From the UHGV virus genome UHGV-1330501: 9,372 nt of DNA. The stretch is one strand, 5' to 3'. Positions 1 to 9,372 of the stretch are shown piece by piece. The stretch's first letter is position 1; each line of letters begins with the position of its first letter. A model generated the notes under the pieces. The model ran no database searches, was not told where the DNA came from, and saw nothing but the letters and a program-made list of their open reading frames with translations. The translations under genes were made by a program, and so were the position numbers. The DNA is from a virus.

Positions 1-55
1 TTCGATTTTCGCAGCGGCCTTTTCAACATAACGAGTCGTACATTATGCGCACCAA
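1..55. repeat. Left copy of a perfect 55-bp direct repeat (identical to 8400..8454); contains a dif-like XerD-arm/central/XerC-arm element (21..53) and the right half of a terminator stem (10..20). Probably truncated by the window start.
   Basis: Exact identity of 1..55 with 8400..8454; sequence diverges at 56 versus 8455. Plus-strand TTATGCGCACC (43..53) is the reverse complement of the E. coli dif XerC arm GGTGCGCATAA. Confidence 0.85.
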
Positions 56-91
56 TGGTAAGGATGGCGGGAACTGGCGTTACCGGTGCCG

Positions 92-325
92 TCATTGGTC
101 ACAGACCGTAATCCACTGGCCCAGGACGTCTTTCAGGCAATGTTGGCATAAATCCAGTTTTAAGCGATTACTGTCACCAAAAATTGAACCGTATCCAGCT
201 AAGTGATTAACAGACAGAAACTCATTGAACTCAATGTCATCTACCACCGTCTTCGCATGGCGACCACAGCGATCGCAGGTCTTCGCACATAACATTACAG
301 TATCGCTGGATGTGAAAAATTGCAT
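92..325 (-). CDS. Hypothetical small Cys-rich protein (77 aa), possible zinc-ribbon fold (C-x3-C-x2-C ... C-x2-C); accessory gene with no Ff counterpart.
   Basis: ATG at 325 preceded by strong SD (GAGGAG about 7 nt upstream on minus strand); Cys cluster CAKTCDRC ... CQHC in translation. Confidence 0.55.
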   Translation of the reverse strand: MQFFTSSDTVMLCAKTCDRCGRHAKTVVDDIEFNEFLSVNHLAGYGSIFGDSNRLKLDLCQHCLKDVLGQWITVCDQ

Positions 326-397
326 TTTATCTCCTCGTAATGCTGCCGCGCCGAATCAGCAATAACGCTAAAAAAACAGAATTGTTCGGCTTGGCCA

Positions 398-438
398 ACC
401 CCTGACACTAACAAAAGCAAGTTTTGTCATTGTCCGGG
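398..438 (-). promoter_or_regulatory. Long imperfect hairpin (about 19-bp stem, two mismatches, short loop) directly downstream of the 102-aa ORF; candidate terminator or minus-strand-origin-like structure. A run of seven T on the minus strand lies about 20 nt further on (plus 370..376).
   Basis: Plus-strand aacccctgacactaacaaaagcaagttttgtcattgtccggggtt is self-complementary (CCCCTGACA / TGTCCGGGG outer arms, ACAAAAG / GTTTTGT inner arms). Confidence 0.35.
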
Positions 439-442
439 GTTA

Positions 443-751
443 TCATATAAACCAATAGACCGTCCTTACGCCATTCTGGTTATCAATAACATAGCCGCAT
501 TGTTTCCTTAAAAATTCTTCTGCTAAATCAATGGCTTTTACAGAAATCTCATAAGAAGGAAGTAAAGTGTATCCTTTCCCTTCACTGGCAGCTGCTTTGA
601 TCGCATCCAGAGTATTATCAATCAGTAACAGAGCAAGTGATGCTTCATTTACCTGAGCCGAAGAACTTCTGGCTGCAAGTGTCATTGTTTTTGCTTCTTC
701 CGCTGTAATCGTTCGTTCTGCCAGAGCAGATAAAATCCCATAAGAATCCAT
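443..751 (-). CDS. Hypothetical protein (102 aa), Ala/Leu-rich and probably helical; accessory gene in the position of the Ff noncoding intergenic region.
   Basis: ATG at 751 with GGGG about 7 nt upstream; same strand as phage genes, immediately after the gene IV terminal hairpin. No recognisable family. Confidence 0.5.
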   Translation of the reverse strand: MDSYGILSALAERTITAEEAKTMTLAARSSSAQVNEASLALLLIDNTLDAIKAAASEGKGYTLLPSYEISVKAIDLAEEFLRKQCGYVIDNQNGVRTVYWFI

Positions 752-772
752 TAGTTACCCCAATCAATAATG

Positions 773-830
773 TCCATTTGATGGATAGCGAGCAGGGCTC
801 ACGCACCTACCCGCTATCCATCAAAGTGGA
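773..830 (-). promoter_or_regulatory. Large hairpin (about 18-bp stem with one bulge, 21-nt loop) overlapping the gene IV stop codon; candidate packaging signal and/or gene IV terminator, as in Ff phages.
   Basis: tccatttgatggatagcg (773..790) pairs with cgctatccatcaaagtgga (812..830); position directly after gene IV matches where the Ff packaging-signal hairpin lies. Confidence 0.45.
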
Positions 831-2086
831 CGAATGATATGTGCTGTAAGCAAAATATACATAATACGCTGTTCATTGCTGTCTGCCTTGCTACTGAAAA
901 TCCAGCCTATAAGAGGAATTTTACTTATAACTGGAACTGAACGCTCGGCATTGCTGAACGATGAATCGATAAGCCCTCCCAATAACAACGTCTGACCATC
1001 CTTAATCTGGACTGTCGTCTGAATCTGGCGCTGATTAGTAATAATATCGGATGCCTGATCATCATTGCTGATTGAATCAGCGCGAGTGTCGATAGTCAGA
1101 ACTAGTTGCCCGTTACCCATGACAACAGGCGTTACCTTGAGAGAAACGCCAACATCATGACGCTCGATAGTCTGAAACGGATTATTTACCCCGGCAGATT
1201 CGCCCGTTACCTTTCCGGTGATAAACGGCACATTCTTACCTACGGAAATGTAACCAGTCTGACCAGACTGAGTAAGAATACGCGGCGTTGAAATCACCTT
1301 AGAGCGTGAATTACTCTGGACAGCACGCAGAGACAGCGCCAACACGTTACCATCAAAAATACCAAAAGAACCGCCCGCCGTAGAAAGAGCGCTACCCAGT
1401 GCAGAAGTATTAAAGCCCCCCGCAACCTTATGACCGGATGCAGAACCTGCCGCAAACGATAAATCAACGCCATCAGACAAGCTGGTTTCAAACATCAGCG
1501 ACTGAATGAGAACCTGATCGCGGGCAACATCCACAGAATTGATAAAATCGGACAGAACCGGCAGCAGCTCGTCAGGCGCAGAAACAATCAGCGAGTTATT
1601 GCCTGGATAATCCACGACATTACCACCACCATTAGAATCAAGATAAATTTTAATCAGTTGCTGAACATCGGACGATCTAACTTTTGTCAGCTTAAAATTT
1701 CTGACCGTAAGCGCCACAGGTACTGGCTGGTAAGATGGCTCAGAAGGAAAAGTATCATAAGACTGGTTATCAGAATCATCGGAATCCGAAACCATCTGTG
1801 AAGGTAATTTAGACGGCAAAGAGACTACCGCAGGATTGCCAGAAAGCATGACAAAACCGTTAGCATTCAGAACAGACTTAAAGAAATCATCAATATTTGT
1901 TGGATTAACATCAGCATTAAATACGGTTACGTTTCCTTTAATATCAGGATTAACAATAACAGGCTTGCCAGTTTTTGAAGAATACCACTGAACAAATGAG
2001 CGAACAGATGAATTATTTAAATTAACAGTTTCAGCAGAAACGCAGAATGAACAGGCAAATAAAAAAGCAACAATAACAGAGCGCAT
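821..2086 (-). CDS. IV: Filamentous phage gene IV protein (pIV), outer-membrane secretin for virion export.
   Basis: Translation aligns along its length with M13 pIV as I recall it (e.g. GSFGIFxGxVLxLSxRA, NVPFITGxVTGESAxVNNPFQTIER, ILVPxLSKIPLIG). Start chosen at the internal Met (MRSVIVAFLFACSFCVSA, signal-peptide-like) with GGAG SD; the longer ORF to 2179 would overlap gene I. Confidence 0.9.
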   Translation of the reverse strand: MRSVIVAFLFACSFCVSAETVNLNNSSVRSFVQWYSSKTGKPVIVNPDIKGNVTVFNADVNPTNIDDFFKSVLNANGFVMLSGNPAVVSLPSKLPSQMVSDSDDSDNQSYDTFPSEPSYQPVPVALTVRNFKLTKVRSSDVQQLIKIYLDSNGGGNVVDYPGNNSLIVSAPDELLPVLSDFINSVDVARDQVLIQSLMFETSLSDGVDLSFAAGSASGHKVAGGFNTSALGSALSTAGGSFGIFDGNVLALSLRAVQSNSRSKVISTPRILTQSGQTGYISVGKNVPFITGKVTGESAGVNNPFQTIERHDVGVSLKVTPVVMGNGQLVLTIDTRADSISNDDQASDIITNQRQIQTTVQIKDGQTLLLGGLIDSSFSNAERSVPVISKIPLIGWIFSSKADSNEQRIMYILLTAHIIRPL

Positions 2087-2093
2087 AATAATA

Positions 2094-2468
2094 TTACTCC
2101 TGACAGGTAACAGTCTGTAAATAACGGCCTTTTCTAATAACAACACGACAGGCATCTTTAATATCAACGGAATAACCATCTTTAATCAAATCAAAATACT
2201 GATATTTCATACCTTTTGCATCAACAAACGTAACGGAAACGTCAAAGCCAAGTTGTGAAAAAGAATTAATAGAAAGTCGGGGTAAGTCACTGGACGAATC
2301 AGGCGTTACCGCCCTCGCCTGTTCAGCATAAGCAGATTTAATAGCTGAGATTTCATCAACATTCTTTCCAGACTGGAGCCAGAAACCAAACGCAAGCCCC
2401 AGCGCCAAAAAAGAAAGCATTAATATAAGACGGTTCGATTTGCGAAAATAAATTTTAGTGAGGCGCAT
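2094..2468 (-). CDS. XI: Putative gene XI protein (pXI), in-frame internal start within gene I at Met241 (MRLTKIYFRK...), as in Ff phages.
   Basis: Internal ATG at the position corresponding to M13 pXI start (MKLTKIYLKK), followed by a hydrophobic membrane segment. Confidence 0.5.
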   Translation of the reverse strand: MRLTKIYFRKSNRLILMLSFLALGLAFGFWLQSGKNVDEISAIKSAYAEQARAVTPDSSSDLPRLSINSFSQLGFDVSVTFVDAKGMKYQYFDLIKDGYSVDIKDACRVVIRKGRYLQTVTCQE

Positions 2469-3188
2469 ATAATAATTAAATCCTCTGTGAACAGAAAATT
2501 GACCGTGCGTGATAAATGGTGGCAAAAGCGAAAATGCGCCATGAGGATAATTATCTGTGAACGCTTGTTTGGTATTGTAAGCAGAATAAAGAGATTTTCC
2601 TGTATATATCCATTTATCAACAGTGATTGAATTAACATTATCACCATATTTGACAATGCCAAAGTGTACCTTTGGTAAAGAAAATCTCGCCCCTGAAACC
2701 AAATTCATAATGGAGCCAACAAAAGGAATGTTTAATTTATCTGAACGGCGACAATAAACAACATGCTCAGCAAGCGCCAGACGAGCTTGCTTATCCATTA
2801 TCGAAATATCCTGAATCAAAAATATAATATCCCAGCCTAATTTTCTGGCATGTAAAAACCAGTCAATAACAGGTTGTCTGTCTTTATCACCCCATGAGCG
2901 GGAATTAAACCAAGTACCACATTCATCAAGTACAAGGAGGCCATTACGGGATTCATCGTAAGATGTATTCCCAATACCAATAGCAAGTAAATCATTTAAT
3001 GAAGGCTTGTCAGGAATGCGAATAACGCGCGTTTTTTTCGCATAACGCCCAACCATAGGCATATTATGCAATTTAAGATCAAGATTAGTGGCAACAGGAC
3101 AACCCTTAGCAAGTCTTTCCTGTATTCTGGAAACACTAACAAGTGTCTTGCCTGAGCCTAATTTGCCTGTTACTACATAAACCGCCAT
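2094..3188 (-). CDS. I: Filamentous phage gene I protein (pI), Zot-like assembly ATPase with Walker A motif GKLGSGKT.
   Basis: N-terminus MAVYVVTGKLGSGKTLVSV closely matches M13 pI (MAVYFVTGKLGSGKTLVSV); conserved LLVLDECGTWFN and ARKLGWDIIFL; start directly follows the gene VI stop. Confidence 0.92.
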   Translation of the reverse strand: MAVYVVTGKLGSGKTLVSVSRIQERLAKGCPVATNLDLKLHNMPMVGRYAKKTRVIRIPDKPSLNDLLAIGIGNTSYDESRNGLLVLDECGTWFNSRSWGDKDRQPVIDWFLHARKLGWDIIFLIQDISIMDKQARLALAEHVVYCRRSDKLNIPFVGSIMNLVSGARFSLPKVHFGIVKYGDNVNSITVDKWIYTGKSLYSAYNTKQAFTDNYPHGAFSLLPPFITHGQFSVHRGFNYYMRLTKIYFRKSNRLILMLSFLALGLAFGFWLQSGKNVDEISAIKSAYAEQARAVTPDSSSDLPRLSINSFSQLGFDVSVTFVDAKGMKYQYFDLIKDGYSVDIKDACRVVIRKGRYLQTVTCQE

Positions 3189-3533
3189 TTAAATCACCCT
3201 GTTTGCATAATCAAGAAATTTTTGTTTTAAATCGAAAACAAAAACACTGATACGAGTAACCATAATAACGTTAACACACGCCTGAAAATGGTCAGGCAAT
3301 ACAGACGCCATTAAATGGGAGAAATCAGCAGGTAAACCGTTATACATGACCTCAGCAAGGTACTGCATTAAAAGCGTAACAGTTGTTGTAATTAATGCGA
3401 CCAATGCAAAGGCGATTAATCCTGTTCTGGTAGCAAGTCGAGCTAAAAAACTCGCCACATAGCCAATAAACAAAGGAACAAGACCAATAAGAAAACGCAA
3501 CAATGCAGGAATACCTAATAATAAAGGCATCAC
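3189..3533 (-). CDS. VI: Filamentous phage gene VI protein (pVI), minor coat protein.
   Basis: N-terminus [15 protein letters not shown] and C-terminal FVFDLKQKF resemble M13 pVI (MPVLLGIPLLLRFL ... FIFDVKQKI); start overlaps the gene III stop (ATGA). Confidence 0.85.
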
Positions 3534-4825
3534 TCACCCCCTTTGCGAAGCAATGAAGTTAAAGAAGTAAAGACATACCAGAACGTAAGGCAATAAAAAA
3601 CCCATGAAAGAACATCTTTAATAGTCAGTAATTTATCGCAACCAATATCAATCTGATAAACCTCTCCGGGAAAAATAATAAAATCAGAGCAGCCGTTACC
3701 ATTGGGTAAATTAGGCAGCATAGCACCTTTATTTAAAAATGCTTCCCATAAAGCACCGTGAGAATCCTTTTCAATTCCCAATTCAGAATCAGCTAAAGTA
3801 GAAGCGCCATCTAATTCAGAGTCGCCCTTTCCATAACGAGAATCACCACCTGAAGGGTCAGCAAAACGGCCAGCCCCCCGCGTAAGATTGTTAATGGAAT
3901 CGTCAAGACGATTTATATTATTCCTGGTTTGTTCATCGGCATTTTTTTTATCATCTGATGAAGTGTCTTTCTCCGTTAATTTATCATGAATATCGCTGGC
4001 TATTTTGGGTGAAGCACCTTCGATCGCAGACTGAATATCACCTTTAGAAAGACTGGAACCACTAGAGCCACCGCCAGAACTACCGCCACCGGACTCACCA
4101 CCGCCAGACTCACCACCACCGGACTCACCACCACCGGACTCACCACCACCGGACTCACCACCGCCGGACTCACCACCGCCGGACTCACCACCGCCAGACT
4201 CACCACCACCATTTTGGGGGGTTGAGGGTTTATCAGAGGGGTCAGCTACAGCACCTGTAGGCTTCCATGTTGCAGCGCAAACAGTACCATCACCCTGACA
4301 AACAATGACACCAGTAGCCTCATATTCACAGCCGTTATAGTAGATATAGCGACCACCATCATATGAATCAACATTATTAAATACACCTTCTTCTGGCGGC
4401 TTCGCTTCACAAATTTCTTCTGGTGTCGGGTCAGTAGGTTTTTCATCAGGAACAGAACGCTGAATATTACCAACAATATAAGCCGTTAAAGACCAATATT
4501 TATCCTTCTGCCCTGGTGAATCGCTGTAAGTACAATCGCCAGTAAAAACAAGACGGAATTCAGAATCAGGCCAGATACCCTCATAAGTTGGTTTAATCCG
4601 AGTAAATACACTCTGAGCACTGGATTTAGCACCCTGACAAGCGGAGGCCTGCATAGCAGCATCAATATAGTAAACCGTTATCTTAGAGCCATCCTGATTG
4701 GTTATTTGCTTACTTTCAGCATAGGCAGAACTTTGATAAGTGGATTTAGTAATGCTTTCCCATGACTCAGCATGTGAAAAAGGAGAAATGAGGACAGCGG
4801 AAAGAATTAATATTTTCCTTCTCAT
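3530..4825 (-). CDS. III: Filamentous phage gene III protein (pIII), minor coat / adsorption protein with Cys-containing N-terminal domains, Gly-rich (GGGES)n linker and C-terminal membrane anchor.
   Basis: Position after gene VIII and its terminator; signal-peptide-like start [19 protein letters not shown] chosen over the longer ORF to 4969, which would overlap gene VIII; Gly-rich linker repeats. Confidence 0.8.
4091..4210 (-). repeat. Tandem array of eight 15-bp units (minus-strand sense CGGTGGTGGTGAGTC and variants) encoding (GGGES)n in the pIII linker, with degenerate copies extending to about 4063.
   Basis: Direct reading of the repeated gactcaccacc(a/g)cc(g/a) units in the plus strand. 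Confidence 0.9.
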
Positions 4826-4843
4826 AGTAACCCGCTTTAATAA

Positions 4844-4862
4844 AGGGGCAACGAGTGCCCCT
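4844..4862 (-). terminator. Stem-loop (AGGGGCA, 5-nt loop, TGCCCCT) between gene VIII and gene III, followed on the minus strand by TTATTAAAG; candidate intrinsic terminator, as after gene VIII in Ff phages.
   Basis: 7-bp GC-rich inverted repeat in the sequence; position matches the Ff gene VIII terminator. The T-tract is weak. Confidence 0.45.
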
Positions 4863-4871
4863 GAGTGAAAT

Positions 4872-5114
4872 TCAAACCGCTTTTGAAGAGAATTTTTTGA
4901 AAATACGAATGGCAAGCCCAGCGCCAACCACAGCAACAACAACAGGCCATACTTTACCAATGAGATCATTTGCCTGAGTCAACAAAGCATCCATTGCCTG
5001 ACCTGCATAATCAGTACCACCTGTAGCGCCTTCAGCCGCAAAAGAACTTGCAGAAATAAAAAGCGCAGTTGAAGCCAAAGCAATTTTATATTTAACAGTA
5101 GACAGAATTTTCAT
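4872..5114 (-). CDS. VIII: Filamentous phage gene VIII protein (pVIII), major coat protein precursor.
   Basis: Signal peptide ending SFA followed by AEG; acidic N-terminus, hydrophobic core and basic C-terminus (KKFSSKAV) parallel M13 pVIII (SFA-AEGDD ... KKFTSKAS); GGAG SD upstream. Confidence 0.88.
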
Positions 5115-5133
5115 AGGAATAACTCCATTAAGG

Positions 5134-5229
5134 TTACATTAATCGGTCAGAAAATGATTTAAATGAACCGACCGCATAGAAAAGGGCAAAACCAAAGGTA
5201 TAAGCCCCGAAGAAATAAACGATATACAT
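5134..5229 (-). CDS. IX: Putative gene IX protein (pIX), 31-aa hydrophobic minor coat protein (MYIVYFFGAYTFGFALFYAVGSFKSFSDRLM).
   Basis: Small ORF whose ATG overlaps the gene VII stop (TAATG); size, hydrophobicity and position match Ff gene IX. Confidence 0.6.
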   Translation of the reverse strand: MYIVYFFGAYTFGFALFYAVGSFKSFSDRLM

Positions 5230-5315
5230 TAACGAAAGACCCCCGCAGTAATCGCGCCGAGGCCAAAAGAAATAACGATGCCAGACGCTATCAAAATTTG
5301 AATAACATCGTCCAT
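5229..5315 (-). CDS. VII: Putative gene VII protein (pVII), 28-aa hydrophobic minor coat protein (MDDVIQILIASGIVISFGLGAITAGVFR).
   Basis: ATG two nt after the gene V-position stop; composition resembles M13 pVII (MEQVADFDTIYQAMIQISVVLCFALGIIAGGQR). Not in the ORF track because of its size. Confidence 0.6.
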   Translation of the reverse strand: MDDVIQILIASGIVISFGLGAITAGVFR

Positions 5316-5317
5316 AT

Positions 5318-5635
5318 TTAACCTTTGATCTCTGCGATGCCACCATCGGAAGCAACATTATAAGTTACACCTTCCCTACCCTCCATTGACCACGCACGGA
5401 CATAGACAGGAATTTGAACTAATTTCCCAATGAAAGCATTCGCCTGGTTCATTAGACCTGCGTTAACGAGAGCCTGAGAAACTCGAATAATAATTTGATC
5501 CTGCTTTGTACCACCAAAACCATCAGGTATTTCAAGGCCAATACCAATTTCATTATAATAGCCCTGACCATTAACTTTATTACGTTGGCGGGCTCCCAAC
5601 ATTTTACCCTTAACGAAAAGACCATAATTAGACAT
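5318..5635 (-). CDS. Protein in the gene V position (105 aa); putative ssDNA-binding protein by synteny only.
   Basis: ATG at 5635 with AAGGAAAG SD, 11 nt after the gene II stop. The sequence does not obviously resemble M13 gVp as I recall it. Confidence 0.5.
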   Translation of the reverse strand: MSNYGLFVKGKMLGARQRNKVNGQGYYNEIGIGLEIPDGFGGTKQDQIIIRVSQALVNAGLMNQANAFIGKLVQIPVYVRAWSMEGREGVTYNVASDGGIAEIKG

Positions 5636-5646
5636 ATTACTTTCCT

Positions 5647-5961
5647 TTAATGCCAGCTACTGGCGTGCGAAATACGGTTGTAATCGAAAATAAAACCTTT
5701 CTCATAAATCCATAAGGGGATTTCCGCTGGCTTGGCTTCCAGCGTTCTTATTAGCGGAACAACGTTATTAGAGTCTGGTGAATCACAATAGAAATTAATA
5801 TCGATACCGAACGAAAGCAATTCTCTTCTATGGCGATAAAAAGTGTTATGAGGTAACATTTCTTTCATGTTAGCCCCTTGTTTCCAAAGTAAATAAGTTG
5901 ACTGTATTTTTCTTGGCAGTTTCGTTATTTTTTCATCACTTAAAATAGCATTCTGATTCAT
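5647..5961 (-). CDS. X: Putative gene X protein (pX): in-frame internal start within gene II (MNQNAILSDE..., about 104 aa).
   Basis: Internal ATG at 5961 preceded by GGGAG SD about 8 nt upstream; analogous to Ff pX, the C-terminal third of pII. An alternative internal ATG at 6009 lacks a clear SD. Confidence 0.4.
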   Translation of the reverse strand: MNQNAILSDEKITKLPRKIQSTYLLWKQGANMKEMLPHNTFYRHRRELLSFGIDINFYCDSPDSNNVVPLIRTLEAKPAEIPLWIYEKGFIFDYNRISHASSWH

Positions 5962-6699
5962 TTCTATTCTCCCTACATATTCAGAGAATAATTGACGTGG
6001 TGTTTTCATATTCCAGTTAGCGCCAAGCGTTAAATTTAAATCAATAAGCTCAGTTGTTCTTAATGTTAATTCAATACGTAATTTATCTTTCGTCCAGTCC
6101 AGTAACCCGGCTCGTACAAACTCTTCGGCTATCTGGTGCCCTTTTTTACCAGAAACGTGTTCATCATATTTTGAATAAAATTTCAGACTCCATCGACGGG
6201 AGTTTTTACCTAAATAAACTGTACCGCCTTTCCCACATGCGCGACCATGGCGTGTTTTAGCTTTAAATTCGGCGGCATAAAGCCATGATCTGACATTTTC
6301 CAGCGTAGATAATGAATACATGTAATTAATGTCAATACGTGAAATTTTATACTGACCTGCCATAACGGCTTTATAAGACGCTAAATCATGAGGAATATTC
6401 AATAAGGATAAAATCCTGGCATAGACCGTCAACATGAGCCCTTGTATATCATCCGACCCAACAACAGAATGCCCCTGCAGAAACTTGGAAGGATTACCAT
6501 CAATGTACAAATGTGTCGCTTTACCTTCGCCATTAGATCCTATCGATCGTACTTTCATCGTTGCTTCATGCGAGCCGCGAACAGTCAGTCGCTTAACGGT
6601 TTCCCACTCAATTGCACCGTCAGCATCAACGCTGACAACACTCCCCGCCGGAAGCGGTTTGTGTGTGCAAGGGAAAATCCCGGTAAGCCAATCGATCAC
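5647..6699 (-). CDS. II: Filamentous phage gene II protein (pII), rolling-circle replication initiator. Start placed at GTG 6699 (protein would begin MIDWLTG...); the ORF is open upstream to GTG 6741.
   Basis: Large ORF at the head of the minus-strand gene order; GAGGA SD 8 nt upstream of GTG 6699 and resemblance of MIDW... to the M13 pII N-terminus MIDMLVL. Confidence 0.8.
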   Translation of the reverse strand: MIDWLTGIFPCTHKPLPAGSVVSVDADGAIEWETVKRLTVRGSHEATMKVRSIGSNGEGKATHLYIDGNPSKFLQGHSVVGSDDIQGLMLTVYARILSLLNIPHDLASYKAVMAGQYKISRIDINYMYSLSTLENVRSWLYAAEFKAKTRHGRACGKGGTVYLGKNSRRWSLKFYSKYDEHVSGKKGHQIAEEFVRAGLLDWTKDKLRIELTLRTTELIDLNLTLGANWNMKTPRQLFSEYVGRIEMNQNAILSDEKITKLPRKIQSTYLLWKQGANMKEMLPHNTFYRHRRELLSFGIDINFYCDSPDSNNVVPLIRTLEAKPAEIPLWIYEKGFIFDYNRISHASSWH

Positions 6700-6868
6700 G
6701 AATAAATCCTCAAAATTGCAAAAATGACGACTTACTAACACATGAGTTCAGTAGTTCATTAGTGTTTAAACATTACACCAGTGAGCTAGTGAGTTCAAGA
6801 GGCTTGGATGATATGAGTTCATGAGCATGTATACTCACTTCAAATATTGCATTGAACGAGCGTAAAAA
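6700..6868. promoter_or_regulatory. Divergent intergenic control region between gene II (minus) and the plus-strand accessory operon, with three direct copies of TGAGTTCA (6743..6750, 6790..6797, 6814..6821); candidate operators, promoters and/or plus-strand origin.
   Basis: Direct repeats read from the sequence; location between divergently oriented genes. The first copy lies upstream of the preferred gene II start at 6699. Confidence 0.45.
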
Positions 6869-7051
6869 ATGGCAAAGCGCACGACTTATAACGTGACGGA
6901 AGAAAGAAAAATGAAACTAGAACGACTGGCTATAAATGCCAGTGTAAAACTAGGAAAAACAATTACATGGACAGAGATTTTAGGTTATCTGATTGATAAC
7001 TACTCTAAAGATGCAGCAGAAGATCTCATGTCTGCCAAACAAAAGGATTAA
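6869..7051 (+). CDS. Small basic protein (60 aa), candidate transcriptional regulator (possibly ribbon-helix-helix-like) read divergently from gene II.
   Basis: ATG at 6869 and stop TAA at 7049..7051; a short N-terminal stretch (TTYNVT) followed by charged helical sequence. Function inferred from position and size only. Confidence 0.5.
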   Translation: MAKRTTYNVTEERKMKLERLAINASVKLGKTITWTEILGYLIDNYSKDAAEDLMSAKQKD

Positions 7052-7068
7052 GTACCACGAATGGTACA

Positions 7069-7107
7069 AACGTGCAGTATTACCTACACTGCACGTTCTT
7101 TATTGTG
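7069..7107 (+). terminator. Hairpin (10-bp stem AACGTGCAGT / ACTGCACGTT, 9-nt loop) followed by CTTTATTGTG; candidate intrinsic terminator or attenuator between the regulator and the membrane-protein gene.
   Basis: Perfect inverted repeat plus T-rich tail read directly from the sequence. Confidence 0.45.
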
Positions 7108-7139
7108 CGGATTTTGAACAGCAACAAAGGATCAAAAGG

Positions 7140-7562
7140 ATGAGTAGAAATAACGAAACAAGCGGCGTTGAACTGGTTGTTGTAGGCGTATTTGCTTTCT
7201 GTCTGGCAGTTGTTGCCTGGCTAATGAAAACTTTCGATGTTGAATGGCAAACAGCACTGGAAACTGCGCCTGGCCTGATAGTCTGGCTGCTTGTTGTCGG
7301 TGCGGGGATCTTTTTCGGGATCAAAATGGAAACTGGCCTTATTCGCTGGGGTGCTCCACTGGCGATCGCCCTTCTGATTCCGGTATTCAAGCCAATTCTT
7401 AAGGAAGCTGCCGGAGTTCGTGAAACGGGTGGGCTGGTTTTCGATGATATGGTTTCGTGGTATGGAACTGGCTGGGGAATGTCTCTGATGTTCTTCGGGA
7501 TTCTTATTGTCGGATATGGCCTGCTTTATTGGTGGCACAGAAGAAATTCATATTACTGGTAA
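7140..7562 (+). CDS. Hypothetical integral membrane protein (140 aa, about four hydrophobic segments).
   Basis: Internal ATG at 7140 with AAGGA upstream; four hydrophobic stretches. The longer ORF from 6993 overlaps the regulator gene and the hairpin and is judged an artefact. Confidence 0.6.
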   Translation: MSRNNETSGVELVVVGVFAFCLAVVAWLMKTFDVEWQTALETAPGLIVWLLVVGAGIFFGIKMETGLIRWGAPLAIALLIPVFKPILKEAAGVRETGGLVFDDMVSWYGTGWGMSLMFFGILIVGYGLLYWWHRRNSYYW

Positions 7563-7590
7563 TCAATAAAACGTAGAAGAGAGGAAACAT

Positions 7591-7866
7591 ATGAAACTGA
7601 ATCCTGAGAAATACAATAGAAACATTACCCTGCTATGTCCTGTGTGCGGAAATACAGAGATGGAACACGAGGAAGAGTCTGAAGTCGTTAGATGTGTAGG
7701 CTGCGGGAAAGAATTTACTAATGATGAGTTAATCCAAGAAAACGGGGTGAGTATTGACGCTCATGTAGATGAAATAAAAGAAGAGTTAACAAAAGACATT
7801 CAAAAACAGTTTAACGACATGCTCAAAAAGGCATTTAAGGGAAGTAAGAATATAAGGATCAAATAA
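7591..7866 (+). CDS. Hypothetical zinc-ribbon protein (91 aa; CPVC-x14-CVGC followed by an acidic/basic helical tail).
   Basis: ATG at 7591 with GAGGAAA SD; two CxxC pairs; AT-rich composition distinct from the phage core; stop overlaps the next start (TAATG). Confidence 0.65.
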   Translation: MKLNPEKYNRNITLLCPVCGNTEMEHEEESEVVRCVGCGKEFTNDELIQENGVSIDAHVDEIKEELTKDIQKQFNDMLKKAFKGSKNIRIK

Positions 7867-8345
7867 TGACAACAAGTGATGCCATCGCTTTAGCTGCGCT
7901 TGTAGTATCGATTTACACTATCATATCGTCAGAAATGAAATCGAGAAAAAGCGATAGAGAACAAAAGGTTATAAAGGATGAGCAAGACAGGTTACGTAAG
8001 TTGCTTCTGGAAAAAGAAACAAAGTCAGCAATTAATGAGATGAAAGCTGAGCTTGGTGCTCGCCTCGTAAAAATAGCCAAAAACAACTATAGGCTCAAGA
8101 TATTTAATAGAGGGAGAGTTGAGGCTAAAAATATAGAGATTCATTTCCCTGATAACGATGGAAATGAATATCTTTCAATGCATGATGTAGAAGATAAATT
8201 TCCATATGAGGTATTACACCCGCAACATGGAATTGAAATTTTAGCGGGAATAAGCTTTGGAAGTAAAACTAAATACCGAATAAAACTCATATGGGATGAC
8301 AATTATAAAAGAAGAAATGAAGAGGAGTTTTTCATTTCTATATAA
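7866..8345 (+). CDS. Hypothetical membrane-anchored protein (159 aa): N-terminal hydrophobic helix, charged coiled-coil-like segment, C-terminal globular domain.
   Basis: ATG overlapping the upstream stop; N-terminal AIALAALVVSIYTIISS; AT-rich; followed by a strong terminator. Confidence 0.65.
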   Translation: MTTSDAIALAALVVSIYTIISSEMKSRKSDREQKVIKDEQDRLRKLLLEKETKSAINEMKAELGARLVKIAKNNYRLKIFNRGRVEAKNIEIHFPDNDGNEYLSMHDVEDKFPYEVLHPQHGIEILAGISFGSKTKYRIKLIWDDNYKRRNEEEFFISI

Positions 8346-8385
8346 ATTGGTTCGCACAATGACGTTATGCTAAAGAGGCCGCTGC

Positions 8386-8422
8386 GGGATTCGATTTTCG
8401 CAGCGGCCTTTTCAACATAACG
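8386..8422 (+). terminator. Intrinsic terminator: 11-bp GC-rich stem (AGGCCGCTGCG / CGCAGCGGCCT), 12-nt loop, then TTTT.
   Basis: Perfect inverted repeat 8386..8396 / 8409..8419 followed by a T-tract, 40 nt after the 159-aa gene stop. Confidence 0.75.
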
Positions 8423-8454
8423 AGTCGTACATTATGCGCACCAAAATTATAGAG
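8400..8454. repeat. Right copy of the 55-bp direct repeat, carrying the dif-like element (XerC arm TTATGCGCACC at 8442..8452); putative right attachment site of the prophage.
   Basis: Exact identity with 1..55; overlaps the loop and 3-prime half of the terminator. Confidence 0.85.
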
Positions 8455-8484
8455 GCTCAATGCTAATGTTCTATTTGTGGCTCA

Positions 8485-9372
8485 TTGGAGGCACTCAGTA
8501 TAATCCGGGAGCACTACCGTGATTTTGGCCCCACGCTGGCGCGGGAAAAGCTGGAGGAAGTTCACGGTCTGGTCCTTGGAAAGGAAACCATCCGACGTCT
8601 CATGATAAACGCGGGACTCTGGATCCCCCGCAGACAACGCGCACCGAAAATTCATCAGCCTCGTTACCGGCGTCCTTGTACTGGCGAGCTGATACAAATT
8701 GATGGCTGCGACCACCACTGAATACGGTAAACCGATGATCCTCTACAGCGATAAAGCCAGCGTATTCAGAGTCAATAATAAGCACGCCACCACCGGTCTC
8801 GGCGATACCCAGTTTGCCAGGGCCATGCGCTGCCTTAATATTACTCCTTTGTGTGCTGAAACCAGCCAGGCAAAAGGCCGCGTTGAACGTGCTCATTTGA
8901 CACTTCAGGACCGACTCGTTAAGGAGCTCAGGCTTAAGGGGATCTGTACAATAGAAGCGGCCAATGCATTTGCAGAAGAATACATGGCGGATTATAACCG
9001 GCGCTTTGCCAAAGAACCCTTGCATGATTTTAACGCGTACCGGCCGCTGGCATTAGACGATGACCTTGATGCAGAATTTACCTGGCGAGAGCCTCGCCGG
9101 GTATCAAAAAATCTGACTGTACAATACGATAAAATGCTCTATCTGATTGAGGACAACGAGTACAGTCGAAGAGCCATCGGCAAGTATATTGATGTCTGGC
9201 ATTATCCTGACGGACATAAGGAGCTGCGACTAAATGGCGTGCTGCTACCCTACTCCACCTATGACCGGCTTTCTGAGGTTGAGCCCGTCGCCATTGTAGA
9301 TAACAAGAGACTTGGCCATGTGTTGGATGTTGCCCGTCAGGTCCAGAGAAAACGGGACAATAATCGCTCACT
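8485..9372 (+). pseudogene. DDE-type transposase of an insertion sequence (retroviral-integrase-like catalytic core), interrupted by a frameshift near 8719 and running off the window end; family not determined.
   Basis: Frame 1 (TTG start 8485) ends ...IQIDGCDHH at TGA 8719..8721; frame 2 continues from 8720 with EYGKPMILYSDKASVF ... AKGRVERAHLTLQDRL (DDE-like D, D, E motifs), open to 9372. Confidence 0.7.

Follow-up and report, generated by a model that had tools for sequence, protein, structure and literature searches.

Packaging Signals of Related Filamentous Phages

Hairpins that serve as packaging signals have been known since the 1980s for the Ff phages and for IKe. IKe and I2-2 are members of the genus Lineavirus. 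In the GenBank record of IKe (NC_002014), a morphogenetic signal is marked at 6141-6196, and the record of I2-2 (NC_001332) gives a "morphogenetic signal" at 2260-2330. Both overlap the stop codon of gene IV, and the status of both as signals is that of the GenBank annotation. According to the passages on Ff phages in bioRxiv 10.1101/2023.12.30.573655, the ascending limb of the Ff signal carries CGGGT closely followed by GGTG (Russel & Model 1989, cited there), and changes in its loop were reported to be without effect.

The UPφ phages are a dif-integrating, Lineavirus-like group (Shapiro & Putonti 2020, PMC7307601). Their structural genes are IKe/I2-2-like, only genes II and V are Ypfφ-like, and two genes of unknown function lie where I2-2, IKe and M13 have an intergenic region. 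Neither a hairpin nor a morphogenetic signal nor a terminator is mentioned in the UPφ paper, and a literature search yielded no description of a packaging signal for this group.

Identity and Gene Map of the Prophage

The analysed DNA (virus genome UHGV-1330501, 9,372 nucleotides, further referred to as the window) represents a filamentous prophage of the UPφ type, integrated at dif in E. coli. Positions 1-8444 were 99.7% identical to the prophage of E. coli UM146, whose copy is located at dif and adjoins hipBA, and strain ECONIH2, the case study of the UPφ paper, was among the near-identical matches. The UPφ primer IntCheck_RV matched exactly at 705-724, inside the first accessory ORF. The window possessed IKe/I2-2-like structural genes (with pIV 69-73% identical to that of IKe and I2-2), a dif-type site, two accessory ORFs after gene IV and reverse-strand ORFs beside dif. 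A CUS-1/Ypfφ identity, suggested by the dif location and the gene order, was ruled out by the UPφ description (PMC7307601) and the exact IntCheck_RV match. All core genes were located on the minus strand, and the following features were assigned:

6741-5647, minus strand: gene II (Phage_CRI/G2P)
5635-5318, minus strand: gene V
5229-5315, minus strand: gene VII, 28 aa, product MDDVIQILIASGIVISFGLGAITAGVFR (RefSeq 'tail virion protein G7P-2')
5134-5229, minus strand: gene IX, 31 aa, similar to IKe pIX
5114-4872, minus strand: gene VIII
ending at 3530, minus strand: gene III
3533-3189, minus strand: gene VI
2094-3188, minus strand: gene I, Zot-type assembly ATPase pI (Pfam Zot, 6.2e-41)
821-2086, minus strand: gene IV, pIV secretin, 421 aa per RefSeq for UM146 (Pfam Secretin, 6.6e-43; GspD N0; Secretin_N)
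443-751, minus strand: first accessory ORF (ORF102), 102 aa, phrog_4115, function unknown
92-325, minus strand: second accessory ORF (ORF77), 77 aa, phrog_5435, function unknown, with CxxC pairs

The glycine-rich linker of pIII (window ~4000-4215, minus strand) contained nine tandem GGGES repeats. Differences in core-gene length relative to UM146 were confined to this linker region.

Structure of the Hairpin at the End of Gene IV

In filamentous phages, the packaged strand and the genes share one polarity, which corresponds here to the minus strand of the window. On this gene-sense strand, a hairpin with 27 bp in total spanned 772-831. It was composed, in the order of the packaged strand, of 5 bp, a bulged C, 20 bp including two G·T pairs, a bulged T, 2 bp and a GTGA tetraloop. 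Its parts are as follows:

772-831, minus strand: whole hairpin, candidate packaging (morphogenetic) signal (fold, z-scores, covariance model)
821-823, minus strand: stop codon TGA of gene IV, within the ascending limb
790-812, minus strand: conserved apical block GGGTAGGTGCGTGAGCCCTGCTC (identity to the I2-2 and IKe signals)
804-813, minus strand: CGGGT-A-GGTG motif, CGGGTAGGTG, on the ascending limb (motif reported for the Ff signal)
809/793, minus strand: conserved T·G wobble in the apex
811/791, minus strand: second G·T pair in the apex
802-799, minus strand: GTGA loop

A large hairpin at 773-830, overlapping the stop codon of gene IV and built of an 18-bp stem with a 21-nt loop, had been proposed in a sequence-only reading of the window. 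A repeat search recovered the inverted repeat at this place (arms 777-796 and 806-825, 20 nt, 90% complementary), and the TGA at 823-821 indeed lies within the ascending limb. The proposed stem and loop sizes fit the given (+) strand, which had been the one read and on which both G·T positions become A·C mismatches; they do not describe the packaged strand, with its 27 bp and GTGA loop.

When folded as DNA, a 74-nt slice gave -24.5 kcal/mol versus -7.1 ± 1.8 kcal/mol for dinucleotide shuffles (z -9.7), with 0 of 200 shuffles as good, and the z-score for a 96-nt slice was -7.0. The fold of the complementary strand was weaker (-21.4 kcal/mol). Only two large hairpins were present in the 9.4-kb window, at 772-831 and at 8363-8422.

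Comparison with the IKe and I2-2 Signals

Like the annotated signals of IKe and I2-2, the hairpin starts on the stop codon of gene IV and is long, imperfect and formed by the viral strand. It shares with them an apical block, GGGTAGG-T-GC-GNNA-GC-CCTGCYC, with the same T·G wobble. The window apex GGGTAGGTGCGTGAGCCCTGCTC was identical to the I2-2 apex GGGTAGGTGCGTTAGCCCTGCCC at 21 of 23 positions and to the IKe apex GGGTAGGTGCGCTAGCCCTGCCC at 20 of 23. The last 30 nt of gene IV were ~67% identical to I2-2, as counted on the alignment, and nothing aligned downstream.

The differences concern the lower stem, which is TTTGATGGATAGC/GCTATCCATCAAA in the window and GAGGCTGCC... in IKe, and the regularity of the structure, as the window stem is nearly uninterrupted over its 27 bp whereas the IKe stem contains internal loops. 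Moreover, the minus and plus origins come after the signals in IKe and I2-2, whereas in the window two accessory ORFs, a dif-type att site and reverse-strand ORFs are located between the signal and gene II.

Conservation and Covariation in Relatives

Relatives were gathered in three independent ways, by pIV homology in species-representative genomes, by the apex pattern in viral contigs and by pIV homology in viral contigs. The apex-pattern search is biased towards the apex by construction; six contigs found in this way were found again by pIV homology (L091=L116, L099=L115, L093=L129, L100=L153, L101=L127 and L102=L124). Three of the 18 pattern matches in viral contigs (L096, L103 and L105) were excluded as G+C-rich chance matches that lacked a gene IV context. 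In the homology-only sample, restricted to loci with sequence present beyond the stop codon, the hairpin was located on the stop codon at all 19 loci from viral contigs whose pIV was 70% or more identical. Relatives with pIV of ~50% identity (f1 and the If1 group) carried a hairpin at the same place belonging to other sequence families, and no hairpin after gene IV was found in the Halomonadaceae-type prophages with pIV of 41-43% identity.

UPφ-/If1-like gene IV sequences (49-100% identical) were also detected in L002, L008, L011 and L021, labelled Candidatus Nanosynbacter, SAR11, Actinomadura and Paenibacillus. These contigs are short or of low coverage, and so the matches very probably represent contamination or mis-binning and not host range.

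The lower stems varied and compensated among the relatives, with GGATAGC/GCTATCC in the window, GGCTGGC/GCCAGCC in L091, TATCAGG/CCTGATA in L101 and GGGGCC/GGCCCC in the APEC E19057 prophage. Covariation of the stem in relatives, named in the sequence-only reading as a check on a packaging signal, was found in the RNAalifold analysis of 11 distinct sequences (alignment A2), which gave 16 consensus pairs, 8 of them changed on both sides. In these 11 sequences, 90.3% of the cells were paired, in comparison with 34-53% when the 3' partners were slid by 1-3 columns, and double-change cells numbered 17 versus 4.8 ± 2.0 in shuffles. In none of the 500 shuffles did the paired fraction, the double-change counts or the covariation score reach the observed value. 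Folded singly, all 11 sequences gave a long hairpin (z from -3.9 to -9.7), and the T·G wobble (window 809/793) was retained in 10 of them. The MAFFT alignment of a larger, unbiased set (A4) misaligned the APEC-type arms and degraded the consensus, so alignment A2, the single folds and the covariance model described below were used instead.

The covariance model (R1) was built from the same eleven sequences, the window included. Its first 19 columns are gene IV coding sequence, which adds to the scores. The window gave a single strong match, 764-838 on the minus strand with 76.4 bits (18.7 bits on the other strand). Exactly one strong sense-strand match per phage was obtained, at the stop codon of gene IV, and loci outside the training set (L114, L117, L120, L121, L122 and L125) scored 45.8-68.1 bits, these columns again contributing.

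Comparison with the Ff, If1 and Other Hairpins

Hairpin A of the Ff phages (f1/M13/fd) resembles the window hairpin in its location directly after gene IV, its imperfect stem and its G·T pairs. The viral strand of f1 is likewise the more stable one (-29.6 versus -24.4 kcal/mol). The ascending limb of the Ff signal, which is recognised at the pVII/pIX end, carries CGGGT...GGTG; the corresponding sequence is CGGGTAGGTG in the window (813-804, minus strand), the same in IKe, and CGGGTGTGGTG in f1. The two elements differ in that f1 pIV is only 50% identical to window pIV and in that the f1 hairpin is longer, begins after the stop codon and is followed by a T-rich tract; f1 was missed by model R1. 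The strong conservation of the apex sequence is not predicted by the Ff model and may indicate an additional constraint.

If1-type phages (NC_001954 and IMG/VR relatives, pIV 48-50% identical) also possess a large hairpin with a viral-strand bias at or just after the gene IV stop codon, but it represents another sequence family (containing CTCCCTGCGCAGCGGGGGG), gave no match to model R1 and had no functional annotation in the record examined. In the If1 group (L131-L138 and L087), this conserved core, CTCCCTGCGCAGCGGGGGG, was found right after gene IV, with the viral strand more stable, and the hairpin is presumably the If1 packaging signal. The central GCGCAGCG of this core is shared by the f1 signal, where it lies at the apex. 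PEar1, in contrast, has the arrangement of the window, IKe and I2-2, with the gene IV stop codon in the ascending limb.

For an inovirus that is integrative, as in the present case, a packaging hairpin has been described in bioRxiv 10.1101/2023.12.30.573655. That signal comprises 20-26 nt with a stem of 7-8 bp, lies mostly inside the replication gene, is active in either orientation and depends on loop bases. The window element, in contrast, is of the long, strand-asymmetric Ff/IKe type and follows gene IV.

Strand Preference

The viral strand was more stable than its complement in 12 of 12 hairpins, f1 included, by 2.6-10.1 kcal/mol, and almost all G·T pairs of the predicted folds were on the viral strand, with 1-5 per hairpin versus 0-1 on the complement. 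This asymmetry argues for a function as a single strand of that polarity and not as a duplex palindrome. Because the viral strand is at the same time the mRNA strand, the asymmetry fits a role as single-stranded DNA or as RNA alike and cannot separate the two.

The same data bear on the view that the hairpin is a duplex-DNA element, namely an operator bound by a dimeric regulator, a recombination site of the Xer/dif type or a pair of inverted ends from a small mobile element. The sequence is an inverted repeat, and the GGTGCG of its loop region equals the first six bases of the dif XerC arm. However, a duplex site would have no reason to keep the bias towards conserved G·T over A·C, and only 6 of the 11 XerC-arm bases are present, the true att sites being located at 43-53 and 8432-8442. 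Each phage had only one copy of the element, located without exception at the stop codon of gene IV; target-site duplication and repeat-family behaviour were absent, and an Rfam search gave no family at the hairpin. The probability of such a duplex role is close to negligible. A Xer site or a CTXφ-like folded attP at 772-831 was rejected on the grounds of the mere 6-nt match and of the complete XerC arms at the prophage ends.

Possible RNA-Level and Minus-Origin Functions

A hairpin at the end of the last core gene could act purely at the RNA level, as an intrinsic terminator, an attenuator or a 3'-end stabiliser of the gene IV transcript, with no role in encapsidation. Its RNA fold was very stable (-49.2 kcal/mol, z -8.1) and was favoured on the mRNA-sense strand, the IKe record also reads 'pot. 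transcription termination', and relative L122 has a T-rich tail, TTGTTTGAGGTTTTTT. The window tail, ATTATTGATT, however, contained no U-tract, a scan with the terminator consensus made no call, and the tails varied among the relatives (CCCCTGAACA, TCTCCGTGTG and ACCCGTATCA). Two ORFs follow on the same strand, the first of them (ORF102) starting at 751, 20 nt past the stem base, with no predicted promoter of its own, so that read-through is needed. Furthermore, a terminator requires neither 27 bp nor an apex conserved across phages with diverged flanks. A function restricted to RNA was thus judged improbable, and a terminator role, which the sequence-only reading had mentioned for the Ff hairpin, found no support as a conserved function, since the stem is not followed by a U-tract and its tail is not conserved. 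In addition to acting as a packaging signal, the hairpin in the gene IV transcript may slow or partly stop transcription or stabilise the RNA. It probably lets the polymerase read through, as two accessory ORFs follow without an intervening promoter.

The hairpin could also be the complementary (minus)-strand origin, primed by the host RNA polymerase or primase, instead of or besides being used in packaging. UPφ has no homologue of the IKe minus-origin hairpins, the window contains only two large hairpins, and the structure is specific to the viral strand. The sequence of the IKe minus-origin hairpin (6333-6438), CTAAATCGTGGGGGCCCC, had no match in the window at up to 3 mismatches. Against a minus origin stands the fact that in IKe and I2-2 the homologues are annotated as morphogenetic signals, with minus-origin hairpins present separately. 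The stem at 772-831 contained no -35/-10-like arrangement, and for this role the hairpin at 8363-8422 is at least as good a candidate. An origin function at 772-831 therefore appears quite improbable.

Proposed Role in Packaging

The hairpin at 772-831 is likely the packaging (morphogenetic) signal of the UPφ-type phage, orthologous to the IKe/I2-2 signal and analogous to hairpin A of Ff, with its part in encapsidation ascribed by analogy to these phages. The sequence-only reading had argued for a candidate packaging signal from position; at the level of sequence, this candidate now gains backing from the IKe/I2-2 homology, the covariation, the strand bias and the IKe-like pVII and pIX.

The genome encodes pVII, pIX and the assembly ATPase pI, the last being part of the machinery that would receive the DNA bearing the signal. 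The last 13 residues of pVII, SFGLGAITAGVFR, were identical to those of IKe pVII, and pIX was similar to IKe pIX. In f1, the C-termini of pVII and pIX contact the DNA tip (PMC10175506), and pVII is a presumed partner of the signal at the leading tip. A conserved apex together with a conserved pVII tail would be the pattern of co-evolving partners. Neither the hairpin scan nor the R1 search revealed a second packaging-type element in the window.

By analogy with Ff and IKe, the viral (+) strand, i.e. the minus strand of the window, would be coated by pV after rolling-circle synthesis, and the imperfect 27-bp hairpin would stay duplex and exposed on the pV-coated strand. At the inner membrane, the hairpin could be recognised by the pI/pXI complex and by pVII and pIX through their positively charged C-termini. 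Such recognition would set the orientation of the DNA and start the exchange of pV for pVIII and the extrusion through pIV.

A broader function, in which the hairpin also marks a fixed 3' end of the core genome, beyond which UPφ- and IKe-like phages exchange cargo, forms a leaky gate tying the cargo ORFs to gene IV transcription, perhaps serves as a priming site for the complementary strand, and has an apex read by its sequence, is rather unlikely. The gate was considered because the RNA hairpin is very stable and has no U-tract, and the priming because UPφ has no IKe-type minus-origin hairpins. If the apex were indeed read by sequence, its near-invariance and the T·G wobble would reflect a recognition unpredicted by the Ff model.

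As a packaging signal, the hairpin is a well-supported but ordinary feature, the counterpart of the IKe/I2-2 signal in an integrated E. coli phage, and the understanding of filamentous-phage assembly is unchanged by it. A probable assembly signal can now be assigned to the UPφ phages, which are widespread as dif-integrated prophages in E. coli, Salmonella, Klebsiella, Citrobacter and Yersinia. Packaging signals of the Lineavirus type can be searched for by a compact signature, a hairpin that encloses the stop codon of gene IV and has GGGTAGG-T-GC-GNNA-GC-CCTGC at its apex. The segment is also defined for UPφ-based phagemids or for cross-packaging tests among UPφ, IKe and co-resident phages.

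Region Downstream of the Hairpin

In the sequence-only reading, it was pointed out that the hairpin is followed by an ORF and not by origin hairpins, which agrees with the published description of UPφ (PMC7307601). The homology among UPφ-like relatives (L082, L003 and L091) ended at the downstream edge of the hairpin, and E. coli prophages with 81% identity aligned only to window position 818. The ORFs that come directly after the hairpin differ among UPφ, the APEC E19057 prophage, Izhakiella and plasmid pCREC572-6, which suggests cargo exchange at the downstream junction of the hairpin. The E. coli plasmid pCREC572-6 (L083, NZ_CP183160.1, 14.5 kb) is an IKe-like filamentous phage replicon. 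In this replicon, the packaging hairpin is separated from a plus origin of the IKe type, GAGTCCACTATGTTTAATAGTGGACTC, by an ORF for a 'putative zinc ribbon protein', which occupies the place taken in IKe by the minus-origin hairpins.

A search by sequence pattern for an IKe-type plus origin or minus origin gave no significant match in the window. Upstream of gene II (6740-6860, minus strand), four copies of (T/A)GAACT(C/A) were present, three as GAACTCA and one as GAACTAC. A small hairpin near 6762-6779 on the minus strand, GGTGTAATGTTTAAACAC, resembles, by eye only, the IKe nick-site hairpin CCACTATGTTTAATAGTGG. The region 6740-6860 (minus strand) folded no better than shuffles (z +0.6); it may be the plus origin.

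Attachment Sites and the Second Large Hairpin

Complete XerC arms were identified at window positions 43-53 and 8432-8442. The second large hairpin, with arms at 8363-8386 and 8399-8422, adjoins the phage att site. In the viral-strand fold of 8350-8446, the XerC arm GGTGCGCATAATG (8442-8430) paired with CATTGTGCGAAC (8361-8350), and TTATGT paired with GCATAA; as DNA, this fold had -26.5 kcal/mol and z -6.3. As a duplex, 8350-8446 contained a perfect XerC arm and, at a spacing of 11 nt and not of 6, a sequence that matched the XerD arm at 9 of 11 positions (TTATGTTGAAA). Judged by its sequence, the element resembles a single-stranded attP of the CTXφ kind in a folded, forked form, or it may instead be a bidirectional terminator or a minus origin.

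A 57-bp direct repeat, located at 1-57 and 8390-8446, ended in the XerC arm. In UM146, a true dif (ATTTAACATAATATACATTATGCGCACC) is present at the left junction and a phage-type site at the right. The window, on this account, begins within the terminal part of an adjoining upstream tandem copy or of a hybrid site, and the phage unit is ~8389 bp long.

The remaining part of the window, 8447-9372, lies outside the UM146 prophage and matched, with 100% identity, a transposase gene of the ISNCY family that occurs in 864 E. coli genomes, mainly on plasmids. This ISNCY element directly abuts the XerC arm of the phage/dif site, and the targeting of Xer sites by the ISNCY group may explain its position there.
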